Assembly: GCA_023954635.1 (NCBI GenBank)
Contig: JAGSHI010000004.1
Span: forward strand, 1,028 to 65,027
DNA from: Bacteriovoracaceae bacterium
GTDB taxonomy: Bacteria; Bdellovibrionota; Bacteriovoracia; Bacteriovoracales; Bacteriovoracaceae
Length of the DNA: 64,000 nucleotides
Direction: 5' to 3'
Positions 14,484-32,114 of the stretch are shown piece by piece (within the stretch, counting starts at the first letter, position 1; every line of letters starts with the position of its first letter). Under the pieces are notes generated by a model that worked only from the letters and a program-made list of their open reading frames with translations, did no database searches and had not been told where the DNA came from. A program made the position numbers and the translations under genes.

Positions 14484-14786
14484 TTATAAAGTTGGTTCAC
14501 CTGCCGCTCCGTATTCCATCGTTTGGTCAGATTTCATTCCTTTATTCGAAGTTTCGAAAAGCTCTGTCGCTTGTTCAGAAGTAGTAACAGCAGCTGCTAG
14601 AGCTGAATCTACACCTGCAGTGTTACCTGAAATGGCAGAAGTTACTTGTGTCATTTTTTGCTCTAATGTTTTTCCAAAATAAGAAGAAACACCGATAGAA
14701 CCAACAGCGATAAGTACTAAAAGAATTAGATACTCAGCAGTGTTTTGACCTTGTATCTTATTGATTTTTTTGTTTGAATTTTTCAT
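14484..14786 (-). CDS. flp: Flp/Fap-family pilin, long form (100 aa), paralog 1
   Basis: Leader MKNSNKKINKIQG followed by QNTAEY and a 20-residue hydrophobic stretch, matching the Flp prepilin-peptidase motif G/xxxxEY. AGGAGG RBS. Confidence 0.75.
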   Translation of the reverse strand: MKNSNKKINKIQGQNTAEYLILLVLIAVGSIGVSSYFGKTLEQKMTQVTSAISGNTAGVDSALAAAVTTSEQATELFETSNKGMKSDQTMEYGAAGEPTL

Positions 14787-14959
14787 AATTATCCTCCTGA
14801 TATTAGTTTTAAGATTATTCTTAAACCCGTTTTCCTGTATACATATATACCAGAAAATTCTTTAGCCAATATACTGAAATTGATTTAGTTTAAAAAAATA
14901 GAAAGAATCTTTTAAATTCCTAAGTGAGCAAAATTCTTAGATAGTTTGCCCTGAACAAA

Positions 14960-14990
14960 ACGAAAAAGGCCCTCACATTTGTGAAGGCCT
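14960..14990 (-). terminator. rho-independent terminator of flp paralog 2
   Basis: Minus strand reads AGGCCTTCACAAATGTGAGGGCCT followed by TTTTCGTTTTGTTC. Confidence 0.7.
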
Positions 14991-15021
14991 CTTAAAATAC
15001 ATTCAACTTTTATTATAATTC

Positions 15022-15324
15022 TTATAAAGTTGGCTCAGCTGCAGCTCCGTATTCCATAGTTTTGTCAGACTTCATTCCGTTACTAGAAGTTTCGAAAAGC
15101 TCTACAGCTTGTTCTGAAGTATCAATAGCAGCTGCTTGAGCTGAATCTACACCTGCAGTGTTACCTGAAATGGCAGAAGTTACTTGTGTCATTTTTTGCT
15201 CTAATGTTTTTCCAAAATAAGAAGAAACACCGATAGAACCAACAGCGATAAGTACTAAAAGAATTAGATACTCAGCCGTGTTTTGACCTTTGATTTTTTT
15301 GATTTTTTTGTTTGAATTTTTCAT
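15022..15324 (-). CDS. flp: Flp/Fap-family pilin, long form (100 aa), paralog 2
   Basis: Same G/QNTAEY motif. 90 of 100 residues are identical to paralog 1 by my count, and all 8 mature-region differences fall in the last 40 residues. Confidence 0.75.
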   Translation of the reverse strand: MKNSNKKIKKIKGQNTAEYLILLVLIAVGSIGVSSYFGKTLEQKMTQVTSAISGNTAGVDSAQAAAIDTSEQAVELFETSSNGMKSDKTMEYGAAAEPTL

Positions 15325-15451
15325 AACTATTCTCCTGATATTAGTTTTAAGATCATTCTTAAACCCGTTTTCCTGTATACATATATAGCAAAACTTTCTT
15401 TAATCAGTTAACTGAAATTGACCTAGTGAAATAAATTCATGATGAATATTT

Positions 15452-15486
15452 TTATAAAAAAAAAGGCCCTCACAAGGGAGGGCCTT
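15452..15486 (-). terminator. rho-independent terminator downstream of 15513..16487
   Basis: Minus strand reads GGCCCTC-CCTTGT-GAGGGCC followed by a T9 run. Confidence 0.7.
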
Positions 15487-15512
15487 TCGATATAGTATGG
15501 TTTTTTTTAGTT

Positions 15513-16487
15513 TTAAATTCCTTTTAATGTCTGATCAATCACTTGATTAATCTCAGTGTCAGTTACCGTCTGCTTAAGGTTTAATAAGGCAGATCTAGAG
15601 GCATCAGGATCAAGTCTAGCTTCTAGTGAAAGGATTTCAATCTCTTTCATAATAGCAACTTTATCCTCTTTTCTGAGTTCAATTTTAGGTTTTTCGACTT
15701 TCTTTTTGACCAATTCTTTAGCTTCAATTTTTACTGCTGTCTTTTTCTTCTTAACAGAGACTCGTTTTGGCTTTAGAACTTCGATTAGTTTATTACGAAC
15801 GTTGTTTTCTAAATGATTATACTCATACTTCATTTTCTTTAACTTTTTTTGAGTCTCGAAGTCTAGTTTGTTTTTATAATTATTTAAAGCTGTCATTCGC
15901 TTCATCTCTACTCTTTTAAATACTTCAAGCGCCTTGGGGACAATAACAATACCTGTTATAAGCGCTGCGAATAACGACAATCTAAATATTTTTCCGCCGA
16001 TTTTTCGCCTTTTCTTTTTAGCTATTACACCTTTATTTATTTCACTTTTAGGATCTATTGTCATCTCTTCTTCACCTTCATTAAACTTAAGATCTAATTC
16101 ACTTGTGTATAAATTTTCAGCTTTATTTGGTTCTAACTCTAGTGAATCAAAATCTTGAAGAGGCTCTTCTTCAATTTTATTTGAGAAAAAAGTAGTATCA
16201 GGAGCTACAATAATGACATGTTCATTATTGATAGAGAGTGTATTTGTCGCGAGTAAATGTGCCACTTCGACTACTTTTGTTCCATCAATTGTGACATCAA
16301 TATCAGTTCTCTCTCCAATATCTAGTAAGAAACTACCAGATTCGCCCAAAGATAAAGTAATTCCAGTTTCTAATGTTATAGATTCACCTTCAGAAATCTC
16401 CATAATTGTGCCATCATTTCTCAAAATGATATGCTTTGACGAGGGTGTTTTCTTAGTGTTTTCATCTAATAATAGTATCTTGTCCAC
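15513..16487 (-). CDS. bitopic membrane protein of the Tad locus (acidic N-terminal region, one TM, Lys-rich coiled-coil C-terminus), function unknown
   Basis: 324-aa ORF with TM IFRLSLFAALITGIVIVP. Starts 1 nt after the upstream ORF stop, in an operon with the secretin gene. Confidence 0.5.
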   Translation of the reverse strand: MDKILLLDENTKKTPSSKHIILRNDGTIMEISEGESITLETGITLSLGESGSFLLDIGERTDIDVTIDGTKVVEVAHLLATNTLSINNEHVIIVAPDTTFFSNKIEEEPLQDFDSLELEPNKAENLYTSELDLKFNEGEEEMTIDPKSEINKGVIAKKKRRKIGGKIFRLSLFAALITGIVIVPKALEVFKRVEMKRMTALNNYKNKLDFETQKKLKKMKYEYNHLENNVRNKLIEVLKPKRVSVKKKKTAVKIEAKELVKKKVEKPKIELRKEDKVAIMKEIEILSLEARLDPDASRSALLNLKQTVTDTEINQVIDQTLKGI

Positions 16488-16488
16488 C

Positions 16489-17688
16489 TTAGCTTCCTTT
16501 TATAAGTTTATCCACCAGCTTAATGGTGTCTATAATTTGATTTCTTTTTTTCCAGTAACTTTCTGGATAATATCTAAGTAATTTCTCTAATTCGTACTTC
16601 GCTTTATCGTACTTTTTCAATTTTAAAAGAATACTAATTTCATCATTTAAAGACTTGGTAATTGTTTTAAACTCATCTTTAATTTTCTGTTGTAACATAT
16701 TTATTTTGAATTGAAGCTCTTTTGAAAATTTAACTTCTTTAGTCATCGCAATCGCTTTCGAAATAGTCTGGTGAGAGGTTTTTAAGTTTTCTGGAGCTAA
16801 CTCTCTATCTTTATAATATCTTTCTGCTAGGGCAAATAAATATTCTAAGGCAATCATATTCTCTTGAGTTGCCTTAGGCATAAACTTTAATAAAAAGTTC
16901 CTTAAGAGATAGGGGCTTGTAGGGTAAGCATGTTTTATAGTTACTGTGTTCGTCCCAGGAATGGTGTATTCAGCTGGAATATCCATGGTTATGTGACAAA
17001 ATGTTTTGTGACATTCTTTTCTTACTTGATAGTTATAAACAAGATTTTTATTGATAAAAACACTAATCTCATTTCCTTTGTCTAGCCCAGCCCCTTCAAA
17101 GCTAAAAAGAAGAGCTTCACTTTCCATACTCTTTGGCAAAATTACTTGTAATATAATCTCTTTTTTCCTGAACTCAACATTTTTTGAATAACCTAGATTT
17201 AGAGAGTTAATTGAATTAAAATCCATTTTTACAGCTTTATGCGAAACATCAGCAGTTGTACCTGGTTTATTAATCATATTTTTAATTACTGGAAGTGACA
17301 CCAATAGAAGTATAAGTAAAATTCGCAGTGGCATAAACTTAGGAGCGAGTAATGTTGGAACTTTCTTGCTAAAGACTCTCTTAATAATATTTTGCTCTAG
17401 GTCTATAATCTTATTAAAAGGTCCTGACTTTCGAACAGGTTTTTTTTCTGCCAGATCGCCAACTCCAATTCCAATTTTATCTAATATTTCAATTGAAACA
17501 TTATTACCATCTTGGTCCTTGATGAAAAAATCGCCTTCAGAGTTTTTATCTAAGCTTAAAATCATCTTATCAAGAGCATTATCATTAATAACAATATTAC
17601 AGTTTGCACTTCTTCCAATCTGTACCGGCAGTCTAAACACTCTTGACTGGTTTGATGCTTTTAATGTGATCTCTACTCTTTGAATCAT
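16489..17688 (-). CDS. bitopic membrane protein of the Tad locus with a degenerate FHA-like N-terminus and TPR-like C-terminus, function unknown
   Basis: N-terminus VFRLPVQIGRSANCNIVINDNALDKMILSL...FFIKDQDGNNVSI is FHA-like but lacks the canonical S-x-x-H. TM LRILLILLLVSLPVI. C-terminal KYDKAKYELEKLLRYYPESYW. Confidence 0.45.
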   Translation of the reverse strand: MIQRVEITLKASNQSRVFRLPVQIGRSANCNIVINDNALDKMILSLDKNSEGDFFIKDQDGNNVSIEILDKIGIGVGDLAEKKPVRKSGPFNKIIDLEQNIIKRVFSKKVPTLLAPKFMPLRILLILLLVSLPVIKNMINKPGTTADVSHKAVKMDFNSINSLNLGYSKNVEFRKKEIILQVILPKSMESEALLFSFEGAGLDKGNEISVFINKNLVYNYQVRKECHKTFCHITMDIPAEYTIPGTNTVTIKHAYPTSPYLLRNFLLKFMPKATQENMIALEYLFALAERYYKDRELAPENLKTSHQTISKAIAMTKEVKFSKELQFKINMLQQKIKDEFKTITKSLNDEISILLKLKKYDKAKYELEKLLRYYPESYWKKRNQIIDTIKLVDKLIKGS

Positions 17689-17714
17689 TACTTAATGCCT
17701 TTAAACCTTTCTTA

Positions 17715-19130
17715 TTAATCAAAAATGCTAAATTTTACATCTCTAGATGCATGGTCCCAGAGACCCTTCGCAGCCGATAAGCTCTCCTTAGAGGGCTTTA
17801 CAACTTTCATTGTGACTAGAACCATAAGTTCAATATTTTCATCTTCAAATTTTCTACTCTTAAATAACTCACCAAGTACTGGGACATCTCCAAGAAGTGG
17901 AACTTTACTCACTTCCTTAGAGTTTCTTGTTTTACTGAGCCCACTTATCAAAATACTTTGACCATCTTTAATAGTTACCGCTGTCGAAATTTTTGAAACC
18001 GCAAGAGAAGGTAATCCTCCAGCAATTTTAGCTTCAACAACATCTGTTACAGAGGCATTAAGGTTGGCGTCTATATTTCCTAGCTTATCTACTTTTGGTA
18101 AAATATTTAATTCAATACCGTGATTAACTGGATTAATAACGATTTCTTTTTTTCCATCAACATTTTGAACACTTTCCATATAGAAGGTACCGCCAGAATG
18201 AAATTCTGCTTTCTCTCCTGATCTTGAAACTAGTAATGGCTGAGATAGAACTCTTGATGTACCACTTGTTCTGATCATTTCTAAAAAGAAAGTAAAATCA
18301 TTCAAGACCCAGTTTATTGGCCCTGAGGAGAAGTTCGAATGAGATTGAACTCCTTTTGCTAGTGCTATTGCATTATCTCCACCAATTGGAGGATTTTTTA
18401 AACCAATAGTAAGTAGATCAGATTTAGTCACTTCAACAAACATCACTTCAATTTTAATTGATGGAGCAGTAGAAGTATCTTTACTCATTGAATCTACAAT
18501 TGTTCGATCTATTGTTCTCGCTAACTTAAGTGCCAAATTCTTTTGTAAGTTATCCATTGGAGACCCTACTAGGAATAAGTACTTTCCGTAGTTTCTTGCT
18601 CTAATTCCCTCAATACCACTTTTTTCCAAAGTTCTATTAACTGTCTCAACAATAATTTGTGGTTTCGATAAAAACCTTTCTGTTCCATCGACTATTATTC
18701 CTGGGTATTGTCTTTTACTTTTTTGAATTAATTGATTGGCTTTTTTATTAGTTATTCTTCCACTTAAATAAACCTTGCTACCAACAATTTCTATCTTAAG
18801 ACCTTCAATGCCTTTTAATTCTTTTCTTACTTTTCTTGCCTTAGTACTGCTCGGTCTAGGAGTCACTTTAATACTAAACTCTTCAGTCTTGTTATTATTT
18901 AAAGTTACCTTCATGGTCACTTTTCCTCGCCTTTTCGCTTGGACAATAATGATACTTTTATCTTTTCCTTTGCTTATAGAAACAATTTTATCTTTTGATA
19001 AATCAATTACTTTAACAAAGTCTGTAAGTTGTATTTCCTGGCTTTCACCTCTTTGTATTGAAATATCTTTGGCAAAAGCATTGGTTGTTAACGTGAGCAT
19101 GAATATGAAAACTAAAATTGATTTAATCAT
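17715..19130 (-). CDS. rcpA: Tad pilus secretin (RcpA/CpaC family)
   Basis: Signal peptide. The C-terminal secretin signature VPLLGDVPVLGELFKSRKFEDENIELMVLVTMKVV is typical of the bacterial type II/III secretin domain. Confidence 0.9.
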   Translation of the reverse strand: MIKSILVFIFMLTLTTNAFAKDISIQRGESQEIQLTDFVKVIDLSKDKIVSISKGKDKSIIIVQAKRRGKVTMKVTLNNNKTEEFSIKVTPRPSSTKARKVRKELKGIEGLKIEIVGSKVYLSGRITNKKANQLIQKSKRQYPGIIVDGTERFLSKPQIIVETVNRTLEKSGIEGIRARNYGKYLFLVGSPMDNLQKNLALKLARTIDRTIVDSMSKDTSTAPSIKIEVMFVEVTKSDLLTIGLKNPPIGGDNAIALAKGVQSHSNFSSGPINWVLNDFTFFLEMIRTSGTSRVLSQPLLVSRSGEKAEFHSGGTFYMESVQNVDGKKEIVINPVNHGIELNILPKVDKLGNIDANLNASVTDVVEAKIAGGLPSLAVSKISTAVTIKDGQSILISGLSKTRNSKEVSKVPLLGDVPVLGELFKSRKFEDENIELMVLVTMKVVKPSKESLSAAKGLWDHASRDVKFSIFD

Positions 19131-19291
19131 TAAATTTCCTTAAAAATAGATTCTTTATTTATTGAGTATATTTTTACTATATAATGATTTTAAAATATCA
19201 GTTTGACCGGAATTGCAGTTAATTTATGGAGTTATCATCTAGGTTGTTGATATATTACTGAAATTTAATGGTAACCACCTAAAATCAATAC

Positions 19292-19945
19292 TTAATATAG
19301 TTTTGAATATTCAATTAGTTGAAATTGGTTTTCGGATTTCATCAATTCAATTGCAATAAATGAAAATACTATCCAAGGTCCATAAGGGAAGGCTTCATGC
19401 CTACCTTTTTTCCAAACAACGATAAGGCTGAAGGGGATGGCTAATATAATTGAGTATGTAAAAACCTTAAATATTGAAGATCCAGCAATAAGGGCAAGCC
19501 ACAACAGAAGTTTTATATCTCCCTGACCAATCCCTTCCTTTCCATTCACCTTATTATAAATAAAATTCAGAATAATTAATAAAAAAGGCAGGGCAATGCC
19601 AATACCAATATTAATGAAACCTATAAACTTAAGTCCGAACACACAAGTTAATATGGCCCCACACAAGCCTAATAGTTGGATTTCATCAGGTATGATTTTA
19701 AATTTGAAATCAAGCCATAGAACAGCTACAAGAGCGTTTGATATTAGTGCCCAGCCTAATTTATACATGAGACCGTGACCTTGCCCTATATGGCCAACCA
19801 ACATAAACTGAAAAACCATTATAATGATAGAAATAGTATAATAGTTTTTTGGAAGTGTACTTTCTTCAAAATACTCAGCATATTTTAAGTAGATCTTCGG
19901 TGTAATGAAAAGTATCCCTAATAAATAAATTGGTATGTAAACCAC
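19292..19945 (-). CDS. tadV: prepilin peptidase, A24 family (TadV/CpaA type, no methyltransferase domain)
   Basis: Polytopic membrane protein with the two catalytic Asp contexts IIPDEIQLLG and GQGDIKLLLW. Confidence 0.85.
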   Translation of the reverse strand: MVYIPIYLLGILFITPKIYLKYAEYFEESTLPKNYYTISIIIMVFQFMLVGHIGQGHGLMYKLGWALISNALVAVLWLDFKFKIIPDEIQLLGLCGAILTCVFGLKFIGFINIGIGIALPFLLIILNFIYNKVNGKEGIGQGDIKLLLWLALIAGSSIFKVFTYSIILAIPFSLIVVWKKGRHEAFPYGPWIVFSFIAIELMKSENQFQLIEYSKLY

Positions 19946-20090
19946 TGCAATCCCTTAAATACATATTGTATTCTCTTAATATAGAATATTTAATTAAATA
20001 TGTTTGACTAGTCTTGTGCACAATAACAGTCAAATCTAAAAAACAATTCTGATATATACAAGTGATGATAGAAATACGTGGAGGAAAGTT

Positions 20091-20951
20091 TTGAAAGATA
20101 GTAAAGAGAAGAGCACTAAAGCAGATAGTAACAGTTTGCTTAATAAGCTCAAATCCAGTCCAATGTGGCGTAAAGAGAGCTTTCTTTTAGTATTAGCTCT
20201 TGTTAGTGCCTTACTTTCATCGTTCCTAAAGAAAACAAGTGAAGAAAAAAAACTCAATGCCGTTAGAAATGCTCATAGAAAGGTTAGAATTGTTGTTGCT
20301 TCCAAAGACTTAGCAAAAAATTCAGTCATTCAGCAAGAGTCTGTTACTTTTAAGTCTTACTTAGCTCAAAATGTAACTACAAATATGATTCCAGCTAAAG
20401 ACTATCAGAAAATGAAAAATAGAAACCTTCTATTAGAGTTTAAAAAAGGTGATCCTATACTTTCAACAGCTGTTTTAGGATTAAACTCTGGAGACTCAAT
20501 GTCTCGAAACATCCCACTGGGAAAAAGATTCTTTATTCTTGAGTTAAAAGACCAAGCTGTGAGTAATGGTTGGGTTAGACCAAATGATCATGTTGATATT
20601 ATCGTCACAATGAATCTTCCTAAAAAAGGTTCAACTACTTTTACCTTACTACAAGACATTACTCTTGTAAGTGTAGGGGGTAAGACGAGTTGGAATGATA
20701 AAAAGAATGCCGTTGGGTCCCAAATTGGTTTTTACACGGGTCCTAAAGAATTTGAGCTTCTCAAGTTTGCTCAAAAACGTGGAACTTTTGGTATAGCTCT
20801 TAGAAATCCAAAAGATATTGTGATGACAAATACTGTTTCTGATTTCAATGAAGAAGGAATCAATATGGATAGCTTCCTAGATAGTGGAATGCTTAGAAAG
20901 GCCTCTGGTGGATCCGAACTAAAAGTTAAAGTAAGAGGAAAGAGAAAATGA
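20091..20951 (+). CDS. rcpC: Flp pilus assembly protein CpaB/RcpC
   Basis: TTG start with GGAGG RBS, N-terminal TM, SAF-like RIVVASKDLAKNSVIQQESV, RcpC-like PNDHVDIIVT. Confidence 0.85.
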   Translation: MKDSKEKSTKADSNSLLNKLKSSPMWRKESFLLVLALVSALLSSFLKKTSEEKKLNAVRNAHRKVRIVVASKDLAKNSVIQQESVTFKSYLAQNVTTNMIPAKDYQKMKNRNLLLEFKKGDPILSTAVLGLNSGDSMSRNIPLGKRFFILELKDQAVSNGWVRPNDHVDIIVTMNLPKKGSTTFTLLQDITLVSVGGKTSWNDKKNAVGSQIGFYTGPKEFELLKFAQKRGTFGIALRNPKDIVMTNTVSDFNEEGINMDSFLDSGMLRKASGGSELKVKVRGKRK

Positions 20952-21133
20952 GGGAACCTTTAATGAAAAAGGTATTAAAAAATCAACATGGTCAAAGTTC
21001 GACAGAGTATTTACTTATCTGCTTGGCGTTAATCGTTTCCATGGGAGTACTTGCTACATTTGATGGAGGCATTTTAGATATATTTAATGGTAGCTCGAAA
21101 ACTACAATCAAGTTAATCAATTTACCTTACTAG
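20948..21133 (+). CDS. flp: Flp/Fap-family pilin, short form (61 aa; alternative start at 20963)
   Basis: HG/QSSTEYLLICLALIVSMGVLA matches the G/xxxxEY Flp motif followed by a hydrophobic helix. Start overlaps the rcpC stop. Confidence 0.7.
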   Translation: MREPLMKKVLKNQHGQSSTEYLLICLALIVSMGVLATFDGGILDIFNGSSKTTIKLINLPY

Positions 21134-21147
21134 GATTTAACATTATT

Positions 21148-22872
21148 ATGAGTAAAGACAGAAATACTTCAGACATTGAAAAACAGAACTTAGGGTTAGA
21201 GATTGGAGTTAATTATAAGAATTCTGACGGTGTTCAATTTAAACATTTTTCAAAAGGTAAACATCTTATAGGATCTAGTTCATTTGCAAACATCAAAATA
21301 AATTACGATGACTCCAATATTTGTGCTTCATTAAAAATCACGGAAAAAGATGCTTATTTAAAATGTATTGCGGCCACTCCCACCATTTATCATGATGGGA
21401 AATTAATGACTATCGGTGAAGAACTTCATATTGGTGAAAGGTTAAATGTTGTTATAGCAAGAACTCTTGTCACCCTTTCCTTATATCAACATGGAGAGAT
21501 AGTTAAAGATGAAGATGAAGATTTAGATGAAGTTGAAAAATATATTAAAAATATAGATAGAGACTCAGTCAAACTTGTAAAATCCCTATCTATTATTCTA
21601 CAAAATGAATTAGATCTAAGCATAGCGAATATTGAAAGTGCTTCACAAGAAACAAATCAAAAAGCGTCTGCCATTATAAGAAAAAAATTATCTCATTATA
21701 CATTTCCTGAAAATGCTATGTACGATAGAGATAATATTGAGCAAAGAACATTAGACGAAGTGTTAGGTCTTGGTCCACTAGAGCCTCTTTTAGCAGATGA
21801 ATCAATATCAGAAATAATGGTAAATAGTAGAGATCAAATTTTTATAGAAAAAGCCGGAAAACTAACCCTTTCCGATATTGGATTTAGTTCAGAGCAGGCC
21901 CTACTAAATGTTATAGAGAGAATCGTTTCAAGTGTAGGAAGAAGAATTGATACTTCAAGCCCAATTGTCGATGCAAGACTTTTAGATGGCTCAAGAGTAA
22001 ATGCTATTATCCAACCACTTGCTCTCAAGGGAGCTTCTCTTACAATTCGTAAATTTTCTAAGTCTCCAATAACTGTTGATAAATTAATTGATTTTGGCGC
22101 CTTTGATCAAAATATGGGCGACTTCCTGAAATTTTTAGTTGAATCTCATAAAAATATAATCATAAGTGGTGGTACAGGGTCTGGAAAAACAACTCTTCTC
22201 AATGCCTTATCAGGGTTCATTCCAAATGGTGAGCGTATAATTACTGTAGAAGATTCAGCAGAACTACAATTACAACAGGATCATGTTGTTTCTCTTGAAA
22301 CACGTCCTCCAAATCTTGAAGGTAAAGGTGAGATATCCATAAGACGGCTTATTAAAAATACTCTTCGTATGAGACCTGACAGAATTATCGTAGGTGAGTG
22401 TAGAGGTGGAGAGGCTCTTGATATGCTTCAGGCCATGAACACAGGTCACGATGGTTCAATGACAACAGGTCATGCCAATAGTCCTGAAGACATGCTTAGA
22501 AGATTAGAAACTATGACTATGATGTCTGGAATGGAGCTTCCTCTTGCCGCCATTAGAGAACAAATTACTTCAGCTGTTTCGTTAATTATTCAACAAACAA
22601 GAAGAAAAACCGGAAGAAGATTAATTACGGCTATATCTTGGGTAAAAGAACTAGATAGAGATACCGGAATGTATATTACAGTTAAATTATTTTCAAGAAA
22701 TAAAAGAGATGACATCATTGTTCACTCAGAAGCAATCAAAGATTTTTACCGCACAGAAGCAATTGACGGAGATTATAGAACATTTATCCCAGATCTTGCA
22801 GGGCCATTAGACGCTGGTTTAGTAAACGGTAATCTTCCAGATCAAGATTCAGAGGCTCCTCTGTGCCATTAA
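21148..22872 (+). CDS. tadA: Tad secretion ATPase (TadA/CpaF family) with about 200-aa N-terminal extension
   Basis: Walker [15 protein letters not shown], Asp/His boxes ([33 protein letters not shown]). The N-terminal extension has a weak FHA-like pattern ([17 protein letters not shown]...). Confidence 0.92.
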
Positions 22873-24579: not shown

Positions 24580-24675
24580 AATAGACTTCTAAAAAACTAA
24601 ATACTAAATACTATACAGGATTTCCTCAACTTGATAGGATTGTCATATATTATAAATCCTTTTTTGAGGTTAAAA

Positions 24676-25842
24676 ATGTATATGTCTATAACGAAGAAGT
24701 ATTTACTTCCATTGCTGATCCTATCTCTAATGACAGTGACAAATACTAATATCAGAGCAGAAGAAAGTGCTACCAATTTTAAAACTGTGGCGGTTGTAGT
24801 CTCAATAACGACAAAAGAAATAAGCATTCCAACAATAGAATTATTTAGAGAAGTTGTTACAAATATACAAAATTCAAGTGATTGGGTTCCTGCTCCAAAC
24901 TGGTCCGTAAAAAACCTTTTGAGTAAAAACCAAAAAGAGATTCCTGGTATTGGTGCTATTCCTGCTCTAGATAGAGCTATATTAACAGCTGCCTATCCAA
25001 AAATCTCTGGAGACGAGCAAGACAAAAATACGACAGGAACTAAGGTTCTAACCCCGATACAAGTAATGCTCGATACACTTGCCTTGGAGGGAGCGATTAT
25101 AGTTGACTGTGTTCCTAAAGGGCAAGAGACAGTAAGCTCTTGTGCATTATATTACTATGATAGGGCCTTTGGTAAAATCGTAGCCGCTAGTTCAAAATCA
25201 TTTCTAGCTGGTGTCAGCGATTCATTAAAGTGGGCGCCGACTTTACTTTCAAGTTTAACTGAAGGTATGAAAAGTGTCCGTGAAAAAAGAAGTAAAGCTC
25301 AACTTAAAAATGCCTTTGCCAAGACCAAAGAAGAAACTGTAGATAAAGCTACTACGGGAATAGAGTTAGCTGTTTGGGGACAATCTCCAGGTGATGATAG
25401 TGATGTAACGAGTTCAATTCCAGGTTTAACTTTAGTTGTAGGAAAATATAATAAGGGTTATAGCTGGGGAATTGATCTTTCACTAGCTAAAACAAATGAG
25501 GCTAGCTCTGCAAAAAATATTGACTATAATTCAAAATCTTTAGGGCTTGTGTTTCAATCTCGTGTAAATGCAGCAGAATCACTTATTTGGGACCTCTCCT
25601 TTGGAGCAGGTTACGCCAAGAGATCACTTGTCGTTAATAATCTAACATTAGATACTAAAAACCTAGTTCTAAAGCTCTCACCAGGCCTTCTGTGGAAGTT
25701 GAACTCTAGTTTCAACCTTGGAATTGGAATGATCTATGAGAGATTCTTTCATATCGACGAAGTACAAAGCAACGCGGGCGTAAAGCCTATATTGTTTGAT
25801 GGTTCATTAAAGGCCAGCATAAGGTTACAGACTCTGTTCTGA
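24676..25842 (+). CDS. putative outer-membrane beta-barrel protein of the Tad locus
   Basis: ATG 24676 with GAGG RBS, signal peptide, alternating amphipathic C-terminal half and terminal ...IRLQTLF (aromatic C-terminal residue typical of OMPs). No family recognised. Confidence 0.45.
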   Translation: MYMSITKKYLLPLLILSLMTVTNTNIRAEESATNFKTVAVVVSITTKEISIPTIELFREVVTNIQNSSDWVPAPNWSVKNLLSKNQKEIPGIGAIPALDRAILTAAYPKISGDEQDKNTTGTKVLTPIQVMLDTLALEGAIIVDCVPKGQETVSSCALYYYDRAFGKIVAASSKSFLAGVSDSLKWAPTLLSSLTEGMKSVREKRSKAQLKNAFAKTKEETVDKATTGIELAVWGQSPGDDSDVTSSIPGLTLVVGKYNKGYSWGIDLSLAKTNEASSAKNIDYNSKSLGLVFQSRVNAAESLIWDLSFGAGYAKRSLVVNNLTLDTKNLVLKLSPGLLWKLNSSFNLGIGMIYERFFHIDEVQSNAGVKPILFDGSLKASIRLQTLF

Positions 25843-25991: not shown

Positions 25992-26519
25992 TTGAAGGCC
26001 ACACAAACACACAATTTAGAGGAAGACTTTATTTACTTAGATTGGTCAGTAGTAATGCCAGTGTTTTTAAGTAAGAATGCTACAGTTGTTAATGTATCCG
26101 AATACGTTCTCAAAAACCTATCTGAAGAAATTAGTTTAGTAGACCTAGCAAAATCTGTAGATGTCTCTACATTTTATCTTTGCCGAGTTTTTAATAAAGA
26201 ATTAGGAATTAGTCCTATAAAGTGGATGTGGCTTCAGAGAGTTATGGCAGCAGCTTCTTATTTAGCCGCCAATACAAAGTTCAGTTTAACAGATATTGCT
26301 TTTAATTGTGGATTTGCGAGCTCTGCTCATTTTTCTAGATTATTTAAATCTATCTACGGCATAAATCCAAGCAGCTATAAAAAAAGACTAAATGGGGGCT
26401 CTACTGTTTATAAAGGTATGGTTTATCCAGAAATTACAAAAGGTGAACTAGGTGTTGTTCCTAGTCACTTAATGGACAAAATAGAAAATATTTCTTTTAT
26501 TCAATATAATGTATTTTAG
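25992..26519 (+). CDS. AraC-family transcriptional regulator (HTH only, 175 aa)
   Basis: Two HTH_AraC modules: SLVDLAKSVDVSTFYLCRVFNKELGISP and LTDIAFNCGFASSAHFSRLFKSIYGINPSSYKK. Confidence 0.85.
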   Translation: MKATQTHNLEEDFIYLDWSVVMPVFLSKNATVVNVSEYVLKNLSEEISLVDLAKSVDVSTFYLCRVFNKELGISPIKWMWLQRVMAAASYLAANTKFSLTDIAFNCGFASSAHFSRLFKSIYGINPSSYKKRLNGGSTVYKGMVYPEITKGELGVVPSHLMDKIENISFIQYNVF

Positions 26520-27169
26520 GGACTTGAAGTTTTAATAATAGAAACACTAGTTTTTCCATCTTTAAGCTTTTTATAATTTTGTTGGATAGAAGATTTACTA
26601 GAGAACCAAGTTTCATTTTCTTCATTAGAAAATTCTTTAATAGCGGCTTTATTTATAACTTTTTTAAATCCGGCACCTTTTAATTTCTTTGAATAATGTT
26701 TTATTGTTGGACTCATACTAAGATTAGAAACATGAGAAAACATTTCAACTTTAAAGCCATTAAATTCAATTACAACATCATTTATATTTACATTATTATC
26801 TAAAACTTTTTGCATGTCCTTAGCATCACTAGAAAAAGCTAAGCTGCCATTATTAGGAAGTTTAAGAAAATTAAAAATATAAATATTTTTATTCTTTTTA
26901 AAAAGGCCCATCCAGCCACTTTGGTTGGGGTAGACGCCCATAAACTTAGCGCCGTCATTTTCAATTTCAGAGACAATTGTAGAAAGGTCTTTATTTCCGA
27001 ATTGTTGAACAGCGATAGGAAGAGTTTTTTTGCCAAACGACATTTTTCCAAACTTTGTATGTTTCTTTAACAGACTCCAATCTTTCTTAAAATTGTCCAA
27101 GTTGGACGCTAAAGCGCCTCCAAAATAGGTTAAATTAAAAACGATAAATATAGCGAAACATCTTTTCAT
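26516..27169 (-). CDS. hypothetical secreted protein
   Basis: 217-aa ORF with signal peptide, convergent with and overlapping the AraC gene end by 4 nt. No family recognised. Confidence 0.5.
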   Translation of the reverse strand: MKRCFAIFIVFNLTYFGGALASNLDNFKKDWSLLKKHTKFGKMSFGKKTLPIAVQQFGNKDLSTIVSEIENDGAKFMGVYPNQSGWMGLFKKNKNIYIFNFLKLPNNGSLAFSSDAKDMQKVLDNNVNINDVVIEFNGFKVEMFSHVSNLSMSPTIKHYSKKLKGAGFKKVINKAAIKEFSNEENETWFSSKSSIQQNYKKLKDGKTSVSIIKTSSP

Positions 27170-27315
27170 GTAACTCCCACCGTATATTATCCAAAATTTT
27201 TAGCTGCTTTTGACTATGATTGAACACTTATTATCTTAATTTATGATTTGAGCAAGATGAGTCAAATCGGTGCTCTTTAAACATGTAGAATCAATCAACT
27301 TAAAAGGGTTATAAT

Positions 27316-28356
27316 ATGTTCACTAATAATGGAGATAACAATGAAAAAGGTTCTACCATTGTAGAATTTCTTTTTATGTTTCCAATATTCATTTTAGTTT
27401 GTCTATTTGTATTAGAGACAAGTTTTTCTTGGTCTGACAAGCATGTGGCTACCTTAGCAGCATATGAAGCAGCAAGATCTTTAAGCTTGGAAAATCTAGA
27501 CTCTGACCCATGTGATGGTGATCAACTACAGCAAGCGAGATACACGGCCATTAAAAGGTTAGCTTCAGTAGCTCCAACTACTGGACTTGTTTCAACTATG
27601 TTAGGAAAGGGGTCAATAACAGATAGTTTTACTGAAGCATTAGGTACTTCGACATTAAGTGCTCCACTAAAAAGGTTACTTCAAGGATTCGGAACAGCGG
27701 CTCTTTCCACAGATGTAACTTGTGTTTTTGATACAAATACAAATCAGATCAACTTAACATTAACGTACTATCGCATACCAAAACTTCCCCTCGTTGGAAA
27801 AGCTATGTTTCAAGCATATGCTCTGGCCGAAATGTTTAAAAGTACACCTCAAACTCCAGAAACAACAGACGATGAAAAAGTTGATGCCATGAAATCTGTT
27901 ATCACTCAAATTAATGAAAAAATGCTCACACTTGATATGGATCCATCACAGGTTTTAAATGTTCTTTCTCAAGTTAATGGCATGAGCGAAATGGTCAATA
28001 TAAAAAGTCTCATTTCTGATAATGTGTCTACCCTGCAGAGTGATCAAGTTGATATATTAAATAATGCTCTAGCTTCAATGGATCTTTCTCAAGAATTATT
28101 AAATCAAGAATTATTACTTAAAACATTTGTAAACGGTCTTCCTGATGCTCTTACTAGGATTCCAATGACTGTTGAAATATCATTTTTAAGAAAAAGATTT
28201 GACAACAATGCTTCTGTCGATGGAGACGCTTTAGTCTCTACAAGATGGAACGGAGATATCAAAGGTCTAATCAAAATCGATGGTGACTTTAGATCTTGGG
28301 GAAATGAAATGTCAGTTGATCACGGTTTTGATTATACAGAAAGTAGGGACCTATGA
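27316..28356 (+). CDS. tadE: TadE-like pseudopilin, unusually long (346 aa)
   Basis: N-terminus EKG/STIVEFLFMFPIFILVCLFVLE...AAYEAARS matches the TadE-like N-terminal domain, including a G/xxxxEF processing-type motif. Confidence 0.65.
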   Translation: MFTNNGDNNEKGSTIVEFLFMFPIFILVCLFVLETSFSWSDKHVATLAAYEAARSLSLENLDSDPCDGDQLQQARYTAIKRLASVAPTTGLVSTMLGKGSITDSFTEALGTSTLSAPLKRLLQGFGTAALSTDVTCVFDTNTNQINLTLTYYRIPKLPLVGKAMFQAYALAEMFKSTPQTPETTDDEKVDAMKSVITQINEKMLTLDMDPSQVLNVLSQVNGMSEMVNIKSLISDNVSTLQSDQVDILNNALASMDLSQELLNQELLLKTFVNGLPDALTRIPMTVEISFLRKRFDNNASVDGDALVSTRWNGDIKGLIKIDGDFRSWGNEMSVDHGFDYTESRDL

Positions 28357-29471
28357 AGTTTATAAATAATGACAAAGGTTCAAGCATTGTTGAATTTTTA
28401 ATCTTCGCTCCAATCACCGTGATGATTATGCTTTATGTTCACTCAGTTCATACACATATGGAATCTAGTCTAGGAGGTCAAATTCTTTCAAGAAACCTTT
28501 TAATGTTAGGAAATAAAGGAAAAGAGATCAATGAAAATTATCTTGATATCGTTCGAGGTAAAATGGTTAGCAACCTAGATCGATCTCTGTATGAATCAAC
28601 TCCAGAAAATGTAGTTAGATATAAAAAAGATCTTGTATTTGGAGATGGTATCATTGGCAAAATAACAGCTAATACAATTGATACTACTGATATAAAAACT
28701 GAAGAAACAACTTTATTATTTGGGAAAACGGCCACTGATCACGGAGATAAAGGTTCTGAAAGTGCCATTGATGTTAACTCATTGGCCATTAATCCTATTT
28801 TTACAAATCATTTAAAAATGGATCAAGTCATCTTTTCAACACCTCTTGATGAAGATAAAAATGGTATACAAAAATCAATATCATTTTTAAAAGATTACAA
28901 TCGTCAGGGAAAAGACGAATACATAAATCAACAAATCGATATTTATAATAACCTCTATTTGAGTGGTAATTCCGGCTATCATTCTAATGATGCCAACTCA
29001 ACTTCAATCCTAACCACTCAAGCTTCTGTGGGAGAAGACATTTGGGGTGACGATCAAGGTGGAGATTTTAGTAGAACAGTTTTCTTTGAAGATTATTGTT
29101 TAAACAACTCTACGGGAATTGGAAGTTGTGGAAACGTTGAATTTGTCTACCTTAGTATTATATTAAACGATTTTACCAGAAAGGTTTTTGAAGTAGCCTC
29201 TGCTAAAATCAATCTAGAAAATGTACTCGATCCCGTTGAGCTAACAACTGCTAATAGTTATATAAAGGCTCAAACAGAGACTGCTCTCACAAATATTGGA
29301 AGTACGTTTCTCACCGACTATGAAGCAGACTTTATGAGTAAAGTGGCCTTAGAAGGAGTAGAAGATCCTATAGCGGCTCTTAACTTTGAAACTGACACTG
29401 ATACAACTTTTGATAGAGCAACAGGTTGGATAGAGCCACTCGCTGGAAAGTTGAACTTTGAAATAGAGTAA
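28353..29471 (+). CDS. TadE/TadF-like pseudopilin, unusually long (372 aa)
   Basis: N-terminus NDKG/SSIVEFLIFAPITVMIMLYV. Start overlaps the upstream stop (ATGA). Confidence 0.6.
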   Translation: MKFINNDKGSSIVEFLIFAPITVMIMLYVHSVHTHMESSLGGQILSRNLLMLGNKGKEINENYLDIVRGKMVSNLDRSLYESTPENVVRYKKDLVFGDGIIGKITANTIDTTDIKTEETTLLFGKTATDHGDKGSESAIDVNSLAINPIFTNHLKMDQVIFSTPLDEDKNGIQKSISFLKDYNRQGKDEYINQQIDIYNNLYLSGNSGYHSNDANSTSILTTQASVGEDIWGDDQGGDFSRTVFFEDYCLNNSTGIGSCGNVEFVYLSIILNDFTRKVFEVASAKINLENVLDPVELTTANSYIKAQTETALTNIGSTFLTDYEADFMSKVALEGVEDPIAALNFETDTDTTFDRATGWIEPLAGKLNFEIE

Positions 29472-29481
29472 TCGGGAACAT

Positions 29482-31092
29482 ATGAGGATACCAAATTTAG
29501 TAGATGGAAGAACAATGAATGATAATAAAAAACAAAATATTCTAAAAAATGAAAGTGGAAATATTACTCTTTTCTTTTTACTTATTTCAGGACTTGTTTT
29601 TGGTTCTATCAATTATAGTCTCTACATGGGAAAAACAGTTGAAAGTAAAATAAAAACCCAAAACACAGCTGACTTTGCTTCTTATGAAATGGCCGCTCAT
29701 AATGCCGCGGGTTTAAATATGATGAGTACAAATAATTTGGCCATTGGAGCAGCTCTGCATGTCGCGGCCTCTACTAAATTTATTTCAAGATACAGGAGTA
29801 TTCTAACAGCTCTTTCATATGATAGTTCAGATGCAGCAAAGCTTGATCCTATAGTATTCTTAGGAGAGCACGATAAGATTTTTGCTGATTCTGCTAATAT
29901 TTTTGGAACCATGATAAAAAATGCCAAACACTTAACATCTTTAAATAAAAATATCGGAAAGAATTGGCTTAAAGTTGCGCTTCAAAGATCTGTTCAAAGC
30001 TATAGACTCAACTTACCTGGGGCGATTGGACTTCCAGTTCAAGGTGGCCGTGTTATCGGTGATGTTGATTTTAAATATCAACAACTAGCTGTAACTAATG
30101 CTAAAAATGCTTTTTGCCATACCATTAGATCATCTAGAAACATGGTTGATAGGAATAATGTGAAAAATTGGCTTAGTGAACCTGTAAACTCTTTAGGAAT
30201 TGATACGACTTTTTTAAATAAAATAGATAGCCTTGCAGAGAGAGCGACAAATACTGCCAATGAATTTCAAGAACAAATTAGAGCGGGTATATTAGCTAAA
30301 TCTGTAGACTATCAATCAAAATGCGCAAGTATGGGAAATAACGGCCAAAAAGATCCAGAACTACTGCTTTGGTGTAAAACATATGACTTTTGGAAAGTAG
30401 AAAACCCTGAAATTCCAGTTCCAGCATTTTCAGGCTGTGGTTTAAACTACGATGGAGATCTTGGAGAGCAATTGGAATACTTTGCCAATAACGAGACTCC
30501 TGTTGTTACTTTTTCAAATGGACAGCCAAGAATAAGATTATGTCACTCTCAGGGGGGCTCTTTCCAAACATTAGTACCGAGCAGTCCCGGTGTTATTGAT
30601 GGGCATTTAGAACATCATCCTAACGACTATTTGGGAACTTGTAGACCAGAAGGTGGTTCAGATGCTTCATATGATATTGGATTAGTTTTTCCAAATGTAC
30701 AAACAGCTGCTGAAGCTGATGCTTTTAAGGATTCTCTTGATATGGGAATCATGATAGTTAATGCCGGTCTAAAAGAAAATGAAATTCCAGATGCTTGTCC
30801 GACCGACATGAAAGACGATCTATATGGAAATTGTAGCATGAGCCTAAGGGGTGTGAACTTTTTTGGAGACGTTAATGACGAAAATAATGTTTGGGAAAGG
30901 TCGACTTGGGCCTTTGCTCAAACGAAAGCTTTCTACGACCCAAAAGATGACGATCCTGCAAGTGCTATAGTTTTACCACTTGAAGTTTCACCTGATAAAA
31001 TGAGAATGCAAATGTACTGGCCGTCTTGGGAATCATCACTTTCAACACCAACATTGCTACCAGAGGTCATCAATTCAATTAAAGGAAGCTAG
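29482..31092 (+). CDS. tadG: TadG-like protein (Tad N-terminal domain, 536 aa; alternative start 29515)
   Basis: NESGNITLFFLLISGLVFGSINYSLYMGKTVESKIKTQNTADFASYEMAAHNAA fits the TadG-like N-terminal TM + QxxADxAA pattern. Confidence 0.55.
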   Translation: MRIPNLVDGRTMNDNKKQNILKNESGNITLFFLLISGLVFGSINYSLYMGKTVESKIKTQNTADFASYEMAAHNAAGLNMMSTNNLAIGAALHVAASTKFISRYRSILTALSYDSSDAAKLDPIVFLGEHDKIFADSANIFGTMIKNAKHLTSLNKNIGKNWLKVALQRSVQSYRLNLPGAIGLPVQGGRVIGDVDFKYQQLAVTNAKNAFCHTIRSSRNMVDRNNVKNWLSEPVNSLGIDTTFLNKIDSLAERATNTANEFQEQIRAGILAKSVDYQSKCASMGNNGQKDPELLLWCKTYDFWKVENPEIPVPAFSGCGLNYDGDLGEQLEYFANNETPVVTFSNGQPRIRLCHSQGGSFQTLVPSSPGVIDGHLEHHPNDYLGTCRPEGGSDASYDIGLVFPNVQTAAEADAFKDSLDMGIMIVNAGLKENEIPDACPTDMKDDLYGNCSMSLRGVNFFGDVNDENNVWERSTWAFAQTKAFYDPKDDDPASAIVLPLEVSPDKMRMQMYWPSWESSLSTPTLLPEVINSIKGS

Positions 31093-31103
31093 GGATATTA
31101 AAA

Positions 31104-32114
31104 ATGATAAGTGAACCAAAATTTGCAGACTGGTGTGAAAATCTGTCTCAGTCTTTAGACTCGGGACTAGATATTAATTCTCATTTAGAATCAAGAGGTT
31201 CAATCTATAAAAATACTAAATACGATAGAAAAGTCTTAGCTAATATAAATACTGGTGAAAGACTATATCAAGCCATTGGTTATCCAAAATCTAATAACGC
31301 CACTTTCTACCAATCAATAATTAAAACCGGAGAAATCGCAGGACAGTTAACAGAAGTGTTAGCAGATCTTTCAGAATATATTCGTTTTAACGTAAAAATT
31401 AGAAAAGAAATCTACCGTCTCATTCTTATGTTTTTTTTAAAAATCATAGCCCTTGCCGCCTATTTAGGTGGTGCAATGATGATGCTTGAAGTTGTATCAA
31501 GAAAAAAGATTGATCTTTTAGGCCTAGGTCTTTACGGAGACGCTGGTGCCACAAAATTATTTCTTACTGCATGTGGTGGATCTGTAGCTCTTGCTCTTAT
31601 AGGCTACATATGTTTTAAAGCGATTAACTTAAAACCTGTTGAAAGTCTTTATCTTAAGCTACCATTACTTGGAAGATGCTTGCGAGCATTTGCCATGTTC
31701 CGTTTTACCTATGCTATGAAATTAGTTTTTAATACCGAAATGGGACTTAGAGAATCAGTTGAGTTAATCTATGGAGCGGCCGGAAGTAAAGTCATCAAGG
31801 GAAAATACAATAAAACTATAGAAGCTCTGGACGAAAGTAAATCATTTGCCGTTAGTTTAAGTACAAATAGTTATATTCCAGAAAATTTGATTAAATCAAT
31901 AGAGTTCGCTGAACGTGCCGGTAAGATTCCTGACGCCTCGGCTAGACTCTCTGTGCAATTTAAAGAAGAGGCAGAAAAGGCTTTTTATAAATTAAAAGAT
32001 TTCGTCAACCTGATGACTAAAATATTAATTTTTCTAGTTTGTGTTGGCTCTGTGGCCTCTTTGATGTGGCATGTAGCGGTTAAGCCTATGATCGAAGCGT
32101 TTAAAAATTTCTAA
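31104..32114 (+). CDS. two-domain GspF/PilC-like (T2SSF x2) inner-membrane platform protein
   Basis: Two T2SSF-like modules (LSQSLDSGLDINSHLE...TGERLYQAIG...IIKTGEIAGQLTEVLADLSEYI and MKLVFNTEMGLRESVELIYG...SKSFAVSLS...SIEFAERAGKIPDASARLS) separated by TM segments. Starts 11 nt after the tadG-like gene. Confidence 0.7.
   Translation: MISEPKFADWCENLSQSLDSGLDINSHLESRGSIYKNTKYDRKVLANINTGERLYQAIGYPKSNNATFYQSIIKTGEIAGQLTEVLADLSEYIRFNVKIRKEIYRLILMFFLKIIALAAYLGGAMMMLEVVSRKKIDLLGLGLYGDAGATKLFLTACGGSVALALIGYICFKAINLKPVESLYLKLPLLGRCLRAFAMFRFTYAMKLVFNTEMGLRESVELIYGAAGSKVIKGKYNKTIEALDESKSFAVSLSTNSYIPENLIKSIEFAERAGKIPDASARLSVQFKEEAEKAFYKLKDFVNLMTKILIFLVCVGSVASLMWHVAVKPMIEAFKNF

Follow-up and report, generated by a model that had tools for sequence, protein, structure and literature searches.

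A Tad/Flp pilus locus with FHA-like modules and no recognisable TadZ in a genome window of an uncultured Bacteriovoracaceae bacterium

How could the motor of a Tad pilus be recruited to its platform where no TadZ is encoded beside it? The question is raised by a complete Tad/Flp (type IVc) pilus locus at positions 14484..32114 of a stretch of contig JAGSHI010000004.1, from the metagenome-assembled genome of an uncultured Bacteriovoracaceae bacterium. The whole stretch analysed, 64 kb in length, is called the window, and coordinates are window positions unless another locus is named. Canonical Tad loci have the order flp-tadV-rcpCAB-tadZABCDEFG in Aggregatibacter and pilA-cpaA-F in Caulobacter. 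In our judgement it is probable that the product of this locus is a complete Tad machine spanning the envelope, of the TadZ-less kind associated with FHA domains (compare Kil); that the locus is a member of a conserved lineage of Bdellovibrionota, paralogous to the Tad of the hit locus; and that an FHA-like scaffold takes the place of TadZ. Comparisons are made with eight loci of this lineage, named clade A after the TadA tree described below: the window, L004 (a scaffold of 'Bdellovibrionales bacterium GWA2_49_15') and six further loci, including one in a Pseudobacteriovorax genome and one on a 3.8-Mb contig.

Tad core, pilins and absent components

The minus strand carries two genes for Flp-like proteins of 100 amino acids (aa), open reading frames (ORFs) of 324 and 399 aa, a secretin gene and a gene for an A24 peptidase (TadV). 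The plus strand carries rcpC, a 61-aa Flp-like ORF, tadA (574 aa), tadB, tadC and the genes of an outer-membrane barrel protein and an AraC-type regulator. Beyond the regulator lie a convergent gene for a 217-aa secreted protein and then TadE-like, 372-aa, 536-aa and two-domain T2SSF genes. A preliminary description made from the sequence had proposed this gene order and a complete core, and both were confirmed by ORF listing, translation and Pfam/NCBIfam searches.

The secretin rcpA/cpaC (17715..19130, minus; Pfam Secretin E 8e-35) is 50% identical to its L004 orthologue. The prepilin peptidase tadV (19292..19945, minus; Peptidase_A24 E 6e-9) encodes 217 aa with five hydrophobic segments and without a methyltransferase domain. 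Divergently placed are rcpC/cpaB (20091..20951, plus; Pfam RcpC E 1e-9, plus SAF), the motor ATPase gene tadA/cpaF (21148..22872, plus; T2SSE E 2e-67; Walker-A GGTGSGKT) and the platform genes tadB (22863..23708, plus; T2SSF E 4e-15) and tadC (23716..24579, plus; T2SSF E 6e-21), each with a single T2SSF domain. A single motor ATPase of the TadA/CpaF type, a split TadB/TadC platform, an RcpA/CpaC secretin, RcpC/CpaB, a Flp-type G/xxxxEY pilin and a TadV without methyltransferase domain identify the system as Tad; the Flp_Fap matches of the pilins are sub-threshold.

The components expected of a canonical locus and missing here were searched for throughout the window. Walker-A P-loops were sought in six frames and found in TadA only. 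Among window ORFs of at least 100 aa, none has a TadZ-type K/RGGxGxS/T motif or a Hanks-kinase motif. Pfam scans of most other window ORFs of at least 120 aa returned no ParA/CbiA/AAA_31, TadD, CpaD, kinase or further pilus family, and nothing Tad-related was found elsewhere in the 64 kb. TadD (a TPR lipoprotein) and RcpB/CpaD have no Pfam/NCBIfam match in the window; a TPR-like region is present only in the C-terminus of the 399-aa protein. Genes for a type III secretion system that lacks a needle (T3SS/T3SS*) or effector genes are likewise absent from the window. The preliminary statements that TadA is the sole P-loop protein and that TadZ, TadD and RcpB are not recognisable hold for the window, and sensitive profile searches gave no reason to class the 324-aa, 399-aa or barrel protein as an ordinary TadZ, TadD or RcpB homologue.

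Two long Flp prepilins (100 aa) are encoded by flpA (14484..14786, minus) and its tandem duplicate flpB (15022..15324, minus). Both have the motif G/QNTAEY, followed in flpA by a hydrophobic helix at residues 20-38; the Flp_Fap matches (E 0.003 and E 0.0016, respectively) are below cut-off. The flp units constitute a 538-bp tandem duplication (14420-15498, minus), 92% identical, promoter region and terminator included. FlpA is 60% identical to a 94-aa Flp of L004, and long Flps (86-100 aa) are present in five of the seven clade-A loci checked (window, L004, L006, L008, L009). Strong terminator-like hairpins, all on the minus strand, stand 3' of flpA (14427..14456; 13-bp stem and T-run, duplicated with the flp unit), 3' of flpB (14964..14993) and at the end of the tadV-rcpA-399-324 operon (15461..15488; 11-bp stem and T-run). 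About 100 bp upstream of each flp gene are conserved and contain the 8-bp palindrome TGTATACA with TATATA before it. The coding differences between flpA and flpB are concentrated in the C-terminal third of the pilin.

The short prepilin gene (20948..21133, plus; 61 aa) lies directly upstream of tadA. Its product has the motif G/QSSTEY and a hydrophobic helix, and no Pfam match, also none with the isolated N-terminus. Flps of 59-81 aa with G-x4-E-Y occupy the same position in L004 (9819-9998), L006 (9802-9990), L008 (9807-9989) and L009 (9746-9991), and a 49-aa ORF does so in L003 (9840-9989). In L007 a 60-aa gene is called upstream of rcpC. The short Flps before tadA end in a hydrophobic LP[YVISL] (KLINLPY, ILKLPV, LSLPY, LKLPI, VALPS, IRLPL); we know of no described function for such a tail. 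As judged by size, motif and synteny, the tandem 100-aa Flps are candidates for the major pilin, KilP-like in size, and the 61-aa Flp is a candidate adapter or minor Flp, KilK/KilO-like in size.

Three pseudopilin-type genes follow on the plus strand. The first (27316..28356; 346 aa) has a Pfam TadE match at residues 12-54 (E 8e-10) and orthologues in L004 and L006. The second (28353..29471; 372 aa), TadE/F-like, begins with KGSSIVEFL, has a transmembrane segment at residues 11-29 and an orthologue in L004; the N-termini of these two proteins are near-identical, KGS(S/T)IVEFL. The third gene of the operon (29482..31092; 536 aa) encodes a putative large minor pilin of TadG/KilN type with a hydrophobic N-terminal helix (25-43) after SGN and orthologues in L004 (BLASTP E 1e-108; phmmer 2e-100) and L006. 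The pseudopilin trio of the preliminary description stands for the 346-aa protein by its Pfam TadE match; the 372-aa and 536-aa proteins have no Pfam match, including no TadE/Tad with isolated N-termini, and are assigned tentatively, the 372-aa protein by N-terminal helix and motif and the 536-aa protein by N-terminal helix and gene position.

An extra platform-type gene (31104..32114, plus) had been described as GspF/PilC-like, and two T2SSF domains (E 3e-13) and three transmembrane segments were found in its product. GspF is the best NCBIfam match (E 2e-16), far under the curated cut-off. Among the loci examined the gene is present only in the window and L004. It closes the pseudopilin operon and is GspF/PilC-like rather than TadB/C-like.

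FHA-like modules and associated envelope proteins

In TadA approximately 200 residues precede the conserved CpaF core. The same extension is present, without Pfam FHA annotation, in about 70 closest homologues (49-60% identity, 83-96% coverage), and the next group of homologues is annotated PF00498 FHA, PF16697 and T2SSE; source records name the window protein 'CpaF family protein'. With a profile of 62 close relatives, the whole N-terminus matches the FHA-annotated group at an hhalign probability of 98.5%. Its FHA part (aa 14-116; 21187..21495, plus) matches Pfam-annotated FHA-TadA proteins at 95% (E 3e-8, 87 columns, 62 clade members), and the alignment retains a Gly-Arg and a C-terminal GD-I-x-IG-like strand. 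In canonical FHA domains the motifs S-x-x-H and S-x-N-G-T bind phosphothreonine. Here they read x-I-C-A and x-x-P-T-x-F, and the phosphothreonine-binding positions are not conserved. By these alignments the TadA N-terminus is a degenerate FHA domain and not a TadZ. A TadZ hidden in the long N-terminus, comparable with the TadZA fusion of Bdellovibrio bacteriovorus, was considered and rejected: the K/RGGxGxS/T motif is absent and the region aligns to FHA. The domain order N-terminal FHA, linker, three-helix bundle, NTD and CAD is that of class III CpaF. Some TadA homologues (P0003-P0005, 911-998 aa) are about twice the normal length, have several P-loop family matches and may be TadA fusions or tandem ATPases.

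The 399-aa protein (16489..17688, minus) is bitopic. Its AlphaFold2 model, computed from a 41-sequence alignment, has a mean predicted local distance difference test score (pLDDT) of 91 and comprises a beta domain (1-78), a helix, a transmembrane helix (about 117-139), a beta-sandwich (152-269) and C-terminal helices (275-398). The beta domain (17455..17688) is cytoplasmic and assigned to a truncated FHA-like fold, the N-terminus of the family matching canonical FHA at a probability of 94% (E 1e-7). The predicted periplasmic sandwich (16882..17235) matches CBM6/35/36 and BcsB carbohydrate-binding domains in Foldseek searches of the PDB and is termed CBM-like. The helical domain (16495..16866) is TPR-like by model and weak TPR matches. 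Weak Pfam matches of the protein also include Yop-YscD_cpl (E 0.047), with E 0.006 in one member of the family.

A word-index search with the 399-aa sequence returned the query only and an exact-sequence lookup nothing. An exhaustive HMMER search returned 61 matches at E <=0.001, the query included, of which about 50 are full-length relatives (350-460 aa) with 18-27% identity. Pfam scans of all 41 family members gave no consistent family, and NCBI names the protein 'FHA domain-containing protein'. The gene adjoins the secretin gene or tadC in L004, L005, L006 and L008. In locus L007 the gene following tadC codes for a product of 470 aa that has a canonical FHA domain and one transmembrane helix. 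This helix and the periplasmic region can be aligned with the 399 family (probability 72%, E 3.5e-5, 164 columns). On this evidence the 399 family seems to be a divergent version of the bitopic FHA protein that Tad loci of FHA type encode.

The 324-aa protein (15513..16487, minus) is also bitopic, with a beta-rich, predicted cytoplasmic N-domain (about 1-100), a transmembrane segment at 172-190 and a Lys-rich C-terminal part, probably helical and predicted periplasmic. It has no Pfam or NCBIfam match. Iterated hidden Markov model (HMM) searches placed orthologues immediately adjacent to the 399-family gene in L004, L005 and L006, with a weak match in L008; by this synteny the 324-aa protein is read as the conserved partner of the 399-aa protein. 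Both had been put forward as uncharacterised: this stands for the 324-aa protein, and is qualified for the 399-aa protein by weak FHA and TPR matches and by its NCBI name.

The outer-membrane protein (24682..25842, plus) has a signal peptide, a conserved periplasmic N-domain, a long helix and a C-terminal 8-stranded OmpA/OmpX-like barrel. Its start most likely lies at 24682, because the resulting product of 386 aa is identical to database protein P0182; the length of 389 aa given earlier is corrected to this value. The barrel (224-385) is modelled confidently by AlphaFold2 (pLDDT 80-90) and the N-domain with low confidence. Foldseek matches are OmpA, NspA, Ail and OmpX (target-normalised template-modelling score about 0.7); the protein has a C-terminal Phe, typical of outer-membrane proteins, and a weak OMP_b-brl match. 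No similarity to named Tad proteins was found with Foldseek or Pfam/NCBIfam. A word-index search gave five homologues only. The family is present in seven of the eight clade-A loci, the window included, being encoded after tadC in L003, L004, L005, L008 and L009 and beside the secretin gene in L006.

The small AraC-family regulator (25992..26519, plus; HTH_18 E 3e-21) consists of helix-turn-helix domains only and is 51% identical to its L004 orthologue; AraC genes are also present in L008 and the JGI locus. The convergent 217-aa gene (26516..27169, minus) encodes a protein with a signal-peptide-like N-terminus, and its membership in the locus is doubtful: no family match was found, and the gene that occupies this position in L004 shows no detectable similarity to it. 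As a conserved component it was rejected, not being conserved in comparison with L004.

Related loci, TadA phylogeny and known systems

A neighbour-joining tree of one protein, TadA (353 core columns, 200 bootstraps), was computed from the TadA blocks of the Seef supermatrix together with the window, clade-A and FHA-annotated homologues. The clade-A split is present in 99% of the 200 bootstraps, which is an unrooted split count and supersedes a rooted figure of 64%. Over the 353 columns, window TadA is 62.5-73% identical to clade A, 60-62% to the FHA-annotated group, 59% to KilF, 53-57% to Bd0111 and the proteins of B. exovorus, H. marinus and B. stolpii, and 50% to Caulobacter CpaF; it clusters with CpaF/TadA sequences. 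The splits joining the window with H. marinus and B. stolpii and joining clade A with the hit clade are each found in 0/200 bootstraps. From these comparisons window TadA is held to be a paralogue, not an orthologue, of the hit-locus TadA (Bd0111, H. marinus, B. stolpii), because identity is higher within clade A, the clade-A split is at 99% and no bootstrap places it with the hit clade. The link to the Bdellovibrio hit locus drawn in the preliminary description is not upheld.

In L004, 17 of the 18 window genes are colinear, with 23-64% identity. Two modules recur, sometimes rearranged: one of RcpC, short Flp, TadA, TadB, TadC and outer-membrane protein, the other of secretin, 399 family and 324 family, the latter shared by most clade-A loci. 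The 399, 324 and outer-membrane families stay beside the secretin gene or tadC even in the rearranged loci L005, L006 and L008. An A24 peptidase, TadE-like genes and a long Flp are usually present as well, and an AraC regulator often. No ParA-type gene lies within 10 kb of any of the eight loci. For this lineage, distinct, conserved among Bdellovibrionota and equipped with degenerate FHA modules and accessory proteins of its own, no description was found in the literature searched; a comparative genomics study of Bdellovibrionota (mSphere 2024) makes no mention of Tad or Flp.

Two further observations concern related loci. L007 (10001-18725) carries two canonical FHA-TadA genes and, after tadC, the bitopic FHA protein and an 805-aa Ser/Thr-kinase-FHA protein, with no TadZ; it is likely the phospho-regulated counterpart of the kinase-less system of the window. 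In L008 a GYF_2-PilZ protein is encoded beside the clade-A Tad locus (15770-16351, minus), which hints at cyclic di-GMP input in some clade-A members; no PilZ gene is present in the window.

The closest described likeness is to Kil of Myxococcus xanthus, the example of this kind that has been studied best. Kil, a Tad-like apparatus for killing prey, has one ATPase only (KilF, fused to FHA), a number of FHA and FHA+TPR proteins, and neither TadD nor RcpB. Beside its platform genes lies one for an FHA protein with the annotation 'PrgH-like' (MXAN_4649), and related systems occur in Myxococcales, Bradymonadales and Bdellovibrionales (Seef et al. 2021, PMC8460266). Its pilins comprise the major KilP, a 97-aa Flp, the adapter Flps KilK/KilO of about 59 aa, and a TadE/F/G-like tip of KilL/M/N (Herrou et al. 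2025, PMC12075869). The locus in the window shares with Kil the Tad core (TadV, secretin, RcpC, TadA, TadB/C, Flp), an FHA-type domain at the ATPase N-terminus, an additional FHA protein (the 399-aa protein here; FHA+TPR and PrgH-like proteins beside platform genes in Kil), the lack of a TadZ-type second ATPase, TadD and RcpB (for this locus, within the window) and occurrence in predatory bacteria. By size, motif and number there is also a putative correspondence in an Flp of about 100 aa, one of about 60 aa and a TadE/F/G-like trio.

From Kil the locus differs in several respects. It is a single locus, whereas Kil consists of two clusters and separate tip clusters. Its FHA-like domains lack the phosphothreonine-binding residues and no kinase gene is nearby. 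Its FHA partner is anchored in the membrane and has a CBM-like domain in the periplasm; KilD, by contrast, has been described as a cytoplasmic protein. The outer-membrane barrel and GspF-like platform proteins are additional, and T3SS* genes are absent from the window. Of the core proteins TadA was compared, and it is only 59% identical to KilF over the core.

In B. bacteriovorus TadZ is fused to TadA, tad genes are dispersed, and an rcpA2-tadA2 module is dispensable for predation (Tesseur et al. 2026, bioRxiv 10.64898/2026.07.08.737194). TadV and three flp genes are reported for the Bacteriovorax and Halobacteriovorax Tad systems (Avidan et al. 2017, PMC5430801); the locus here likewise has TadV and three associated flp genes. 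The hit-locus Tad (Bd0108-Bd0121, TadZA) and the loci of these two genera also share with the window the phylum, the Tad core and several flp genes, and in B. bacteriovorus the presence of FHA and TPR proteins in the vicinity of tad genes has been noted. The window differs from the hit locus in its paralogous TadA, in an N-terminus that is FHA-like instead of ParA/MinD-like TadZ, and in the position of tadC within the locus.

Class III CpaF proteins (FHA-IDR-3HB-NTD-CAD, with IDR for intrinsically disordered region and 3HB for three-helix bundle) include FHA-CpaF as a named architecture class (PMC12019362). They resemble window TadA in having an N-terminal FHA-type domain and linker ahead of the conserved CpaF core; they are described mostly in betaproteobacteria and with a phosphothreonine-binding FHA, whereas the domain here is degenerate and not recognised by Pfam. 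With canonical Tad loci the window shares Flp, TadV, RcpC, RcpA, TadA-C, TadE-like proteins and the order tadA-tadB-tadC, with an outer-membrane gene in the place of tadD; it differs in the absence of TadZ/CpaE, TadD and RcpB/CpaD, in its divergent operons, long Flps and FHA-like modules, and in the extra two-domain platform protein. The 399-aa protein resembles T3SS PrgH/YscD in topology, in a putatively phospho-independent FHA-like cytoplasmic domain and in its weak Yop-YscD_cpl matches; its periplasmic part is a CBM-like jelly-roll and TPR-like, not made of ring-building motifs, and homology is shown for the FHA region only. The earlier claim that the locus would define a variant Tad architecture was overstated, because an FHA-rich, TadZ-less Tad with FHA fused to the ATPase and without TadD and RcpB is already known, and has been investigated by experiment, as Kil (PMC8460266, PMC12075869) and FHA-CpaF is a named class (PMC12019362). 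With this, the objection foreseen in the preliminary description, that the architecture had been characterised before, holds in part.

Proposed machine, alternatives and significance

By homology, the core follows the usual Tad assembly route: TadV cleaves the Flp prepilins at G/xxxxEY; the Flps are polymerised by a TadA hexamer on TadB and TadC; and the exit of the fibre is by way of RcpC and the RcpA secretin. The 346-aa, 372-aa and 536-aa proteins may form a priming tip complex, with the 100-aa Flps as major and the 61-aa Flp as adapter subunits, as size, motif and synteny suggest. The FHA-like domains of TadA and the 399-aa protein may serve as phospho-independent interaction modules; phospho-independence is proposed because the phosphothreonine residues are lost and no kinase is encoded nearby. 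The 399-aa/324-aa pair would be an inner-membrane scaffold that recruits the motor to the platform and couples it across the inner membrane to the secretin and cell wall; TadZ's function as a hub, and perhaps that of the TadD TPR, would thereby be covered. The outer-membrane barrel protein is a candidate secretin accessory, RcpB- or pilotin-like. Expression is probably controlled by the small AraC-type regulator.

Several results weigh against the TadZ-less, FHA-scaffolded machine. A PDB profile search with the TadA N-domain gave nothing significant (top match the FHA protein 3hx1, E 0.26), and a direct Pfam scan of TadA gave no FHA match, so that the FHA assignment comes from profile-profile comparisons. 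For the 399-aa protein the Pfam FHA match is weak (E 0.012), and the PDB profile search with its family returned coiled-coil and designed-helix matches only, none significant. For the N-domain of the 324-aa protein, hhalign gives a probability of 10%, so that its resemblance to FHA is not significant. Pilin roles are assigned by size and position, the neighbour-joining tree does not settle the deep branching of clade A, KilF and the hit clade, and the absences apply to the window: other parts of the genome could hold genes for TadZ, TadD or kinases. The scheme as a whole is drawn from sequence and predicted structure in an uncultured organism, and the interactions between its components are proposals.

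The possibility of genes outside the window leads to an alternative that we regard as unlikely, in which the system is an ordinary Tad whose TadZ, and likewise TadD or RcpB, is encoded elsewhere, for example in a second, hit-type locus with a TadZ-TadA fusion. The evidence covers 64 kb of one metagenome-assembled contig of 70 kb, the tad genes of B. bacteriovorus are dispersed over several loci and its TadZ forms a fusion with TadA (bioRxiv 10.64898/2026.07.08.737194), the MacSyFinder Tad model permits multi-locus systems (PMC6668835), and Bacteriovoracia have a hit-type TadA (H. marinus, B. stolpii). On the other side, none of the eight clade-A loci has a ParA-type gene within 10 kb, whereas canonical loci place tadZ next to tadA; moreover, TadA has its own N-terminal module, FHA-like partners are conserved in the locus, and Kil works with a single ATPase (PMC8460266). 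That the locus is instead a diverged orthologue of the Bdellovibrio/Halobacteriovorax hit Tad locus from which TadZ was lost is extremely improbable. Bacteriovorax/Halobacteriovorax loci do likewise have TadV and three flp genes (PMC5430801), and hit-locus synteny has been reported for B. marinus (PMC3526173), but window TadA is closer to clade A (62.5-73%), including Pseudobacteriovorax of a more distant class, than to the hit TadAs (53-57%), either grouping with them has 0/200 bootstraps against a clade-A split of 99%, and its N-terminus has no TadZ-type motif. A further reading, by which the 324-aa, 399-aa and barrel proteins belong to the envelope but not to the machine and are encoded beside the tad genes by chance, is very unlikely. 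None of the three has a significant family annotation, and the 217-aa neighbour is indeed not conserved; however, adjacency to the secretin gene or tadC is kept in the rearranged L005, L006 and L008, the 399-aa and 324-aa genes lie in the secretin operon between rcpA and a strong terminator, and the 399 family is related to the FHA protein after tadC in a canonical FHA-Tad locus.

The remaining alternatives concern function. Tentatively, the locus could encode a prey-contact device like Kil instead of an adhesion pilus, that is, a short, dynamic pilus that recognises or pierces prey with its tip and helps in killing or invasion. The lineage of the host consists of predators, the component inventory mirrors that of Kil, B. 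bacteriovorus cannot attach to or invade prey without Tad, the periplasmic CBM-like domain could sense glycan, and an extra two-domain T2SSF protein is present; as a variant, the GspF-like platform and the large tip proteins might point to an exporter resembling a type II secretion system. This function is read from gene content, no effector or T3SS* genes are found in the window, and a duplicated module of B. bacteriovorus, rcpA2-tadA2, which may or may not belong to clade A, is dispensable for predation. A more far-reaching and rather doubtful proposal treats clade A as a second Bdellovibrionota Tad-like machine, in which FHA-like modules replace TadZ, gating comes from the periplasm (for example on prey contact) and not from a cytoplasmic polarity system, and the barrel takes the role of RcpB/TadD; as part of the same proposal, and jointly as doubtful, the periplasmic CBM-like and TPR-like domains would read or bind the cell wall or the secretin. 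The TadZ-less, FHA-scaffolded Tad machine of a paralogous lineage remains the reading that we prefer.

The flanks of the locus are unrelated to Tad: a GH1 glycosidase (12814-14250) on one side and a pterin-4a-carbinolamine dehydratase (32581-32928) on the other. Just upstream are a 477-aa ORF without Pfam match (10976-12409, minus) and a 759-aa protein (7759-10038, minus) with a weak N-terminal PDZ match only. More distant genes of the window include a 491-aa protein (2317-3792, plus) of the Pfam family TGase_elicitor (E 8e-42), unusual in a predatory bacterium; the family is best known from oomycetes. Two ferritin-like proteins of 158 aa each (44-520, minus; 45472-45948, minus), 45 kb apart, are probably paralogues. 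A resistance-nodulation-division efflux operon (38290-43229, minus) comprises an AcrB-family pump (1045 aa), a 184-aa ORF without match and an outer-membrane efflux protein; just upstream of it are an extracytoplasmic function (ECF)-type sigma factor (37222-37725, plus) and an overlapping 210-aa ORF that could be its anti-sigma factor.

In practical terms the finding has limited value, since the general architecture is known and the sequence comes from a metagenome-assembled genome of an uncultured organism. Its interest is biological. Tad pili are central to predation in Myxococcus (Kil) and Bdellovibrio, and how they are positioned and triggered has yet to be settled. For one and the same motor there are now three apparent solutions: a TadZ-TadA fusion in Bdellovibrio; canonical FHA domains and kinases in Kil and related loci; and, in clade A, degenerate FHA domains with a membrane-spanning FHA-like partner. 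If the FHA-like modules are a true replacement of the hub, clade A would offer a simple, single-locus system for recruitment of the Tad motor without a ParA-type protein, and many Bdellovibrionota may carry two distinct Tad-type machines.

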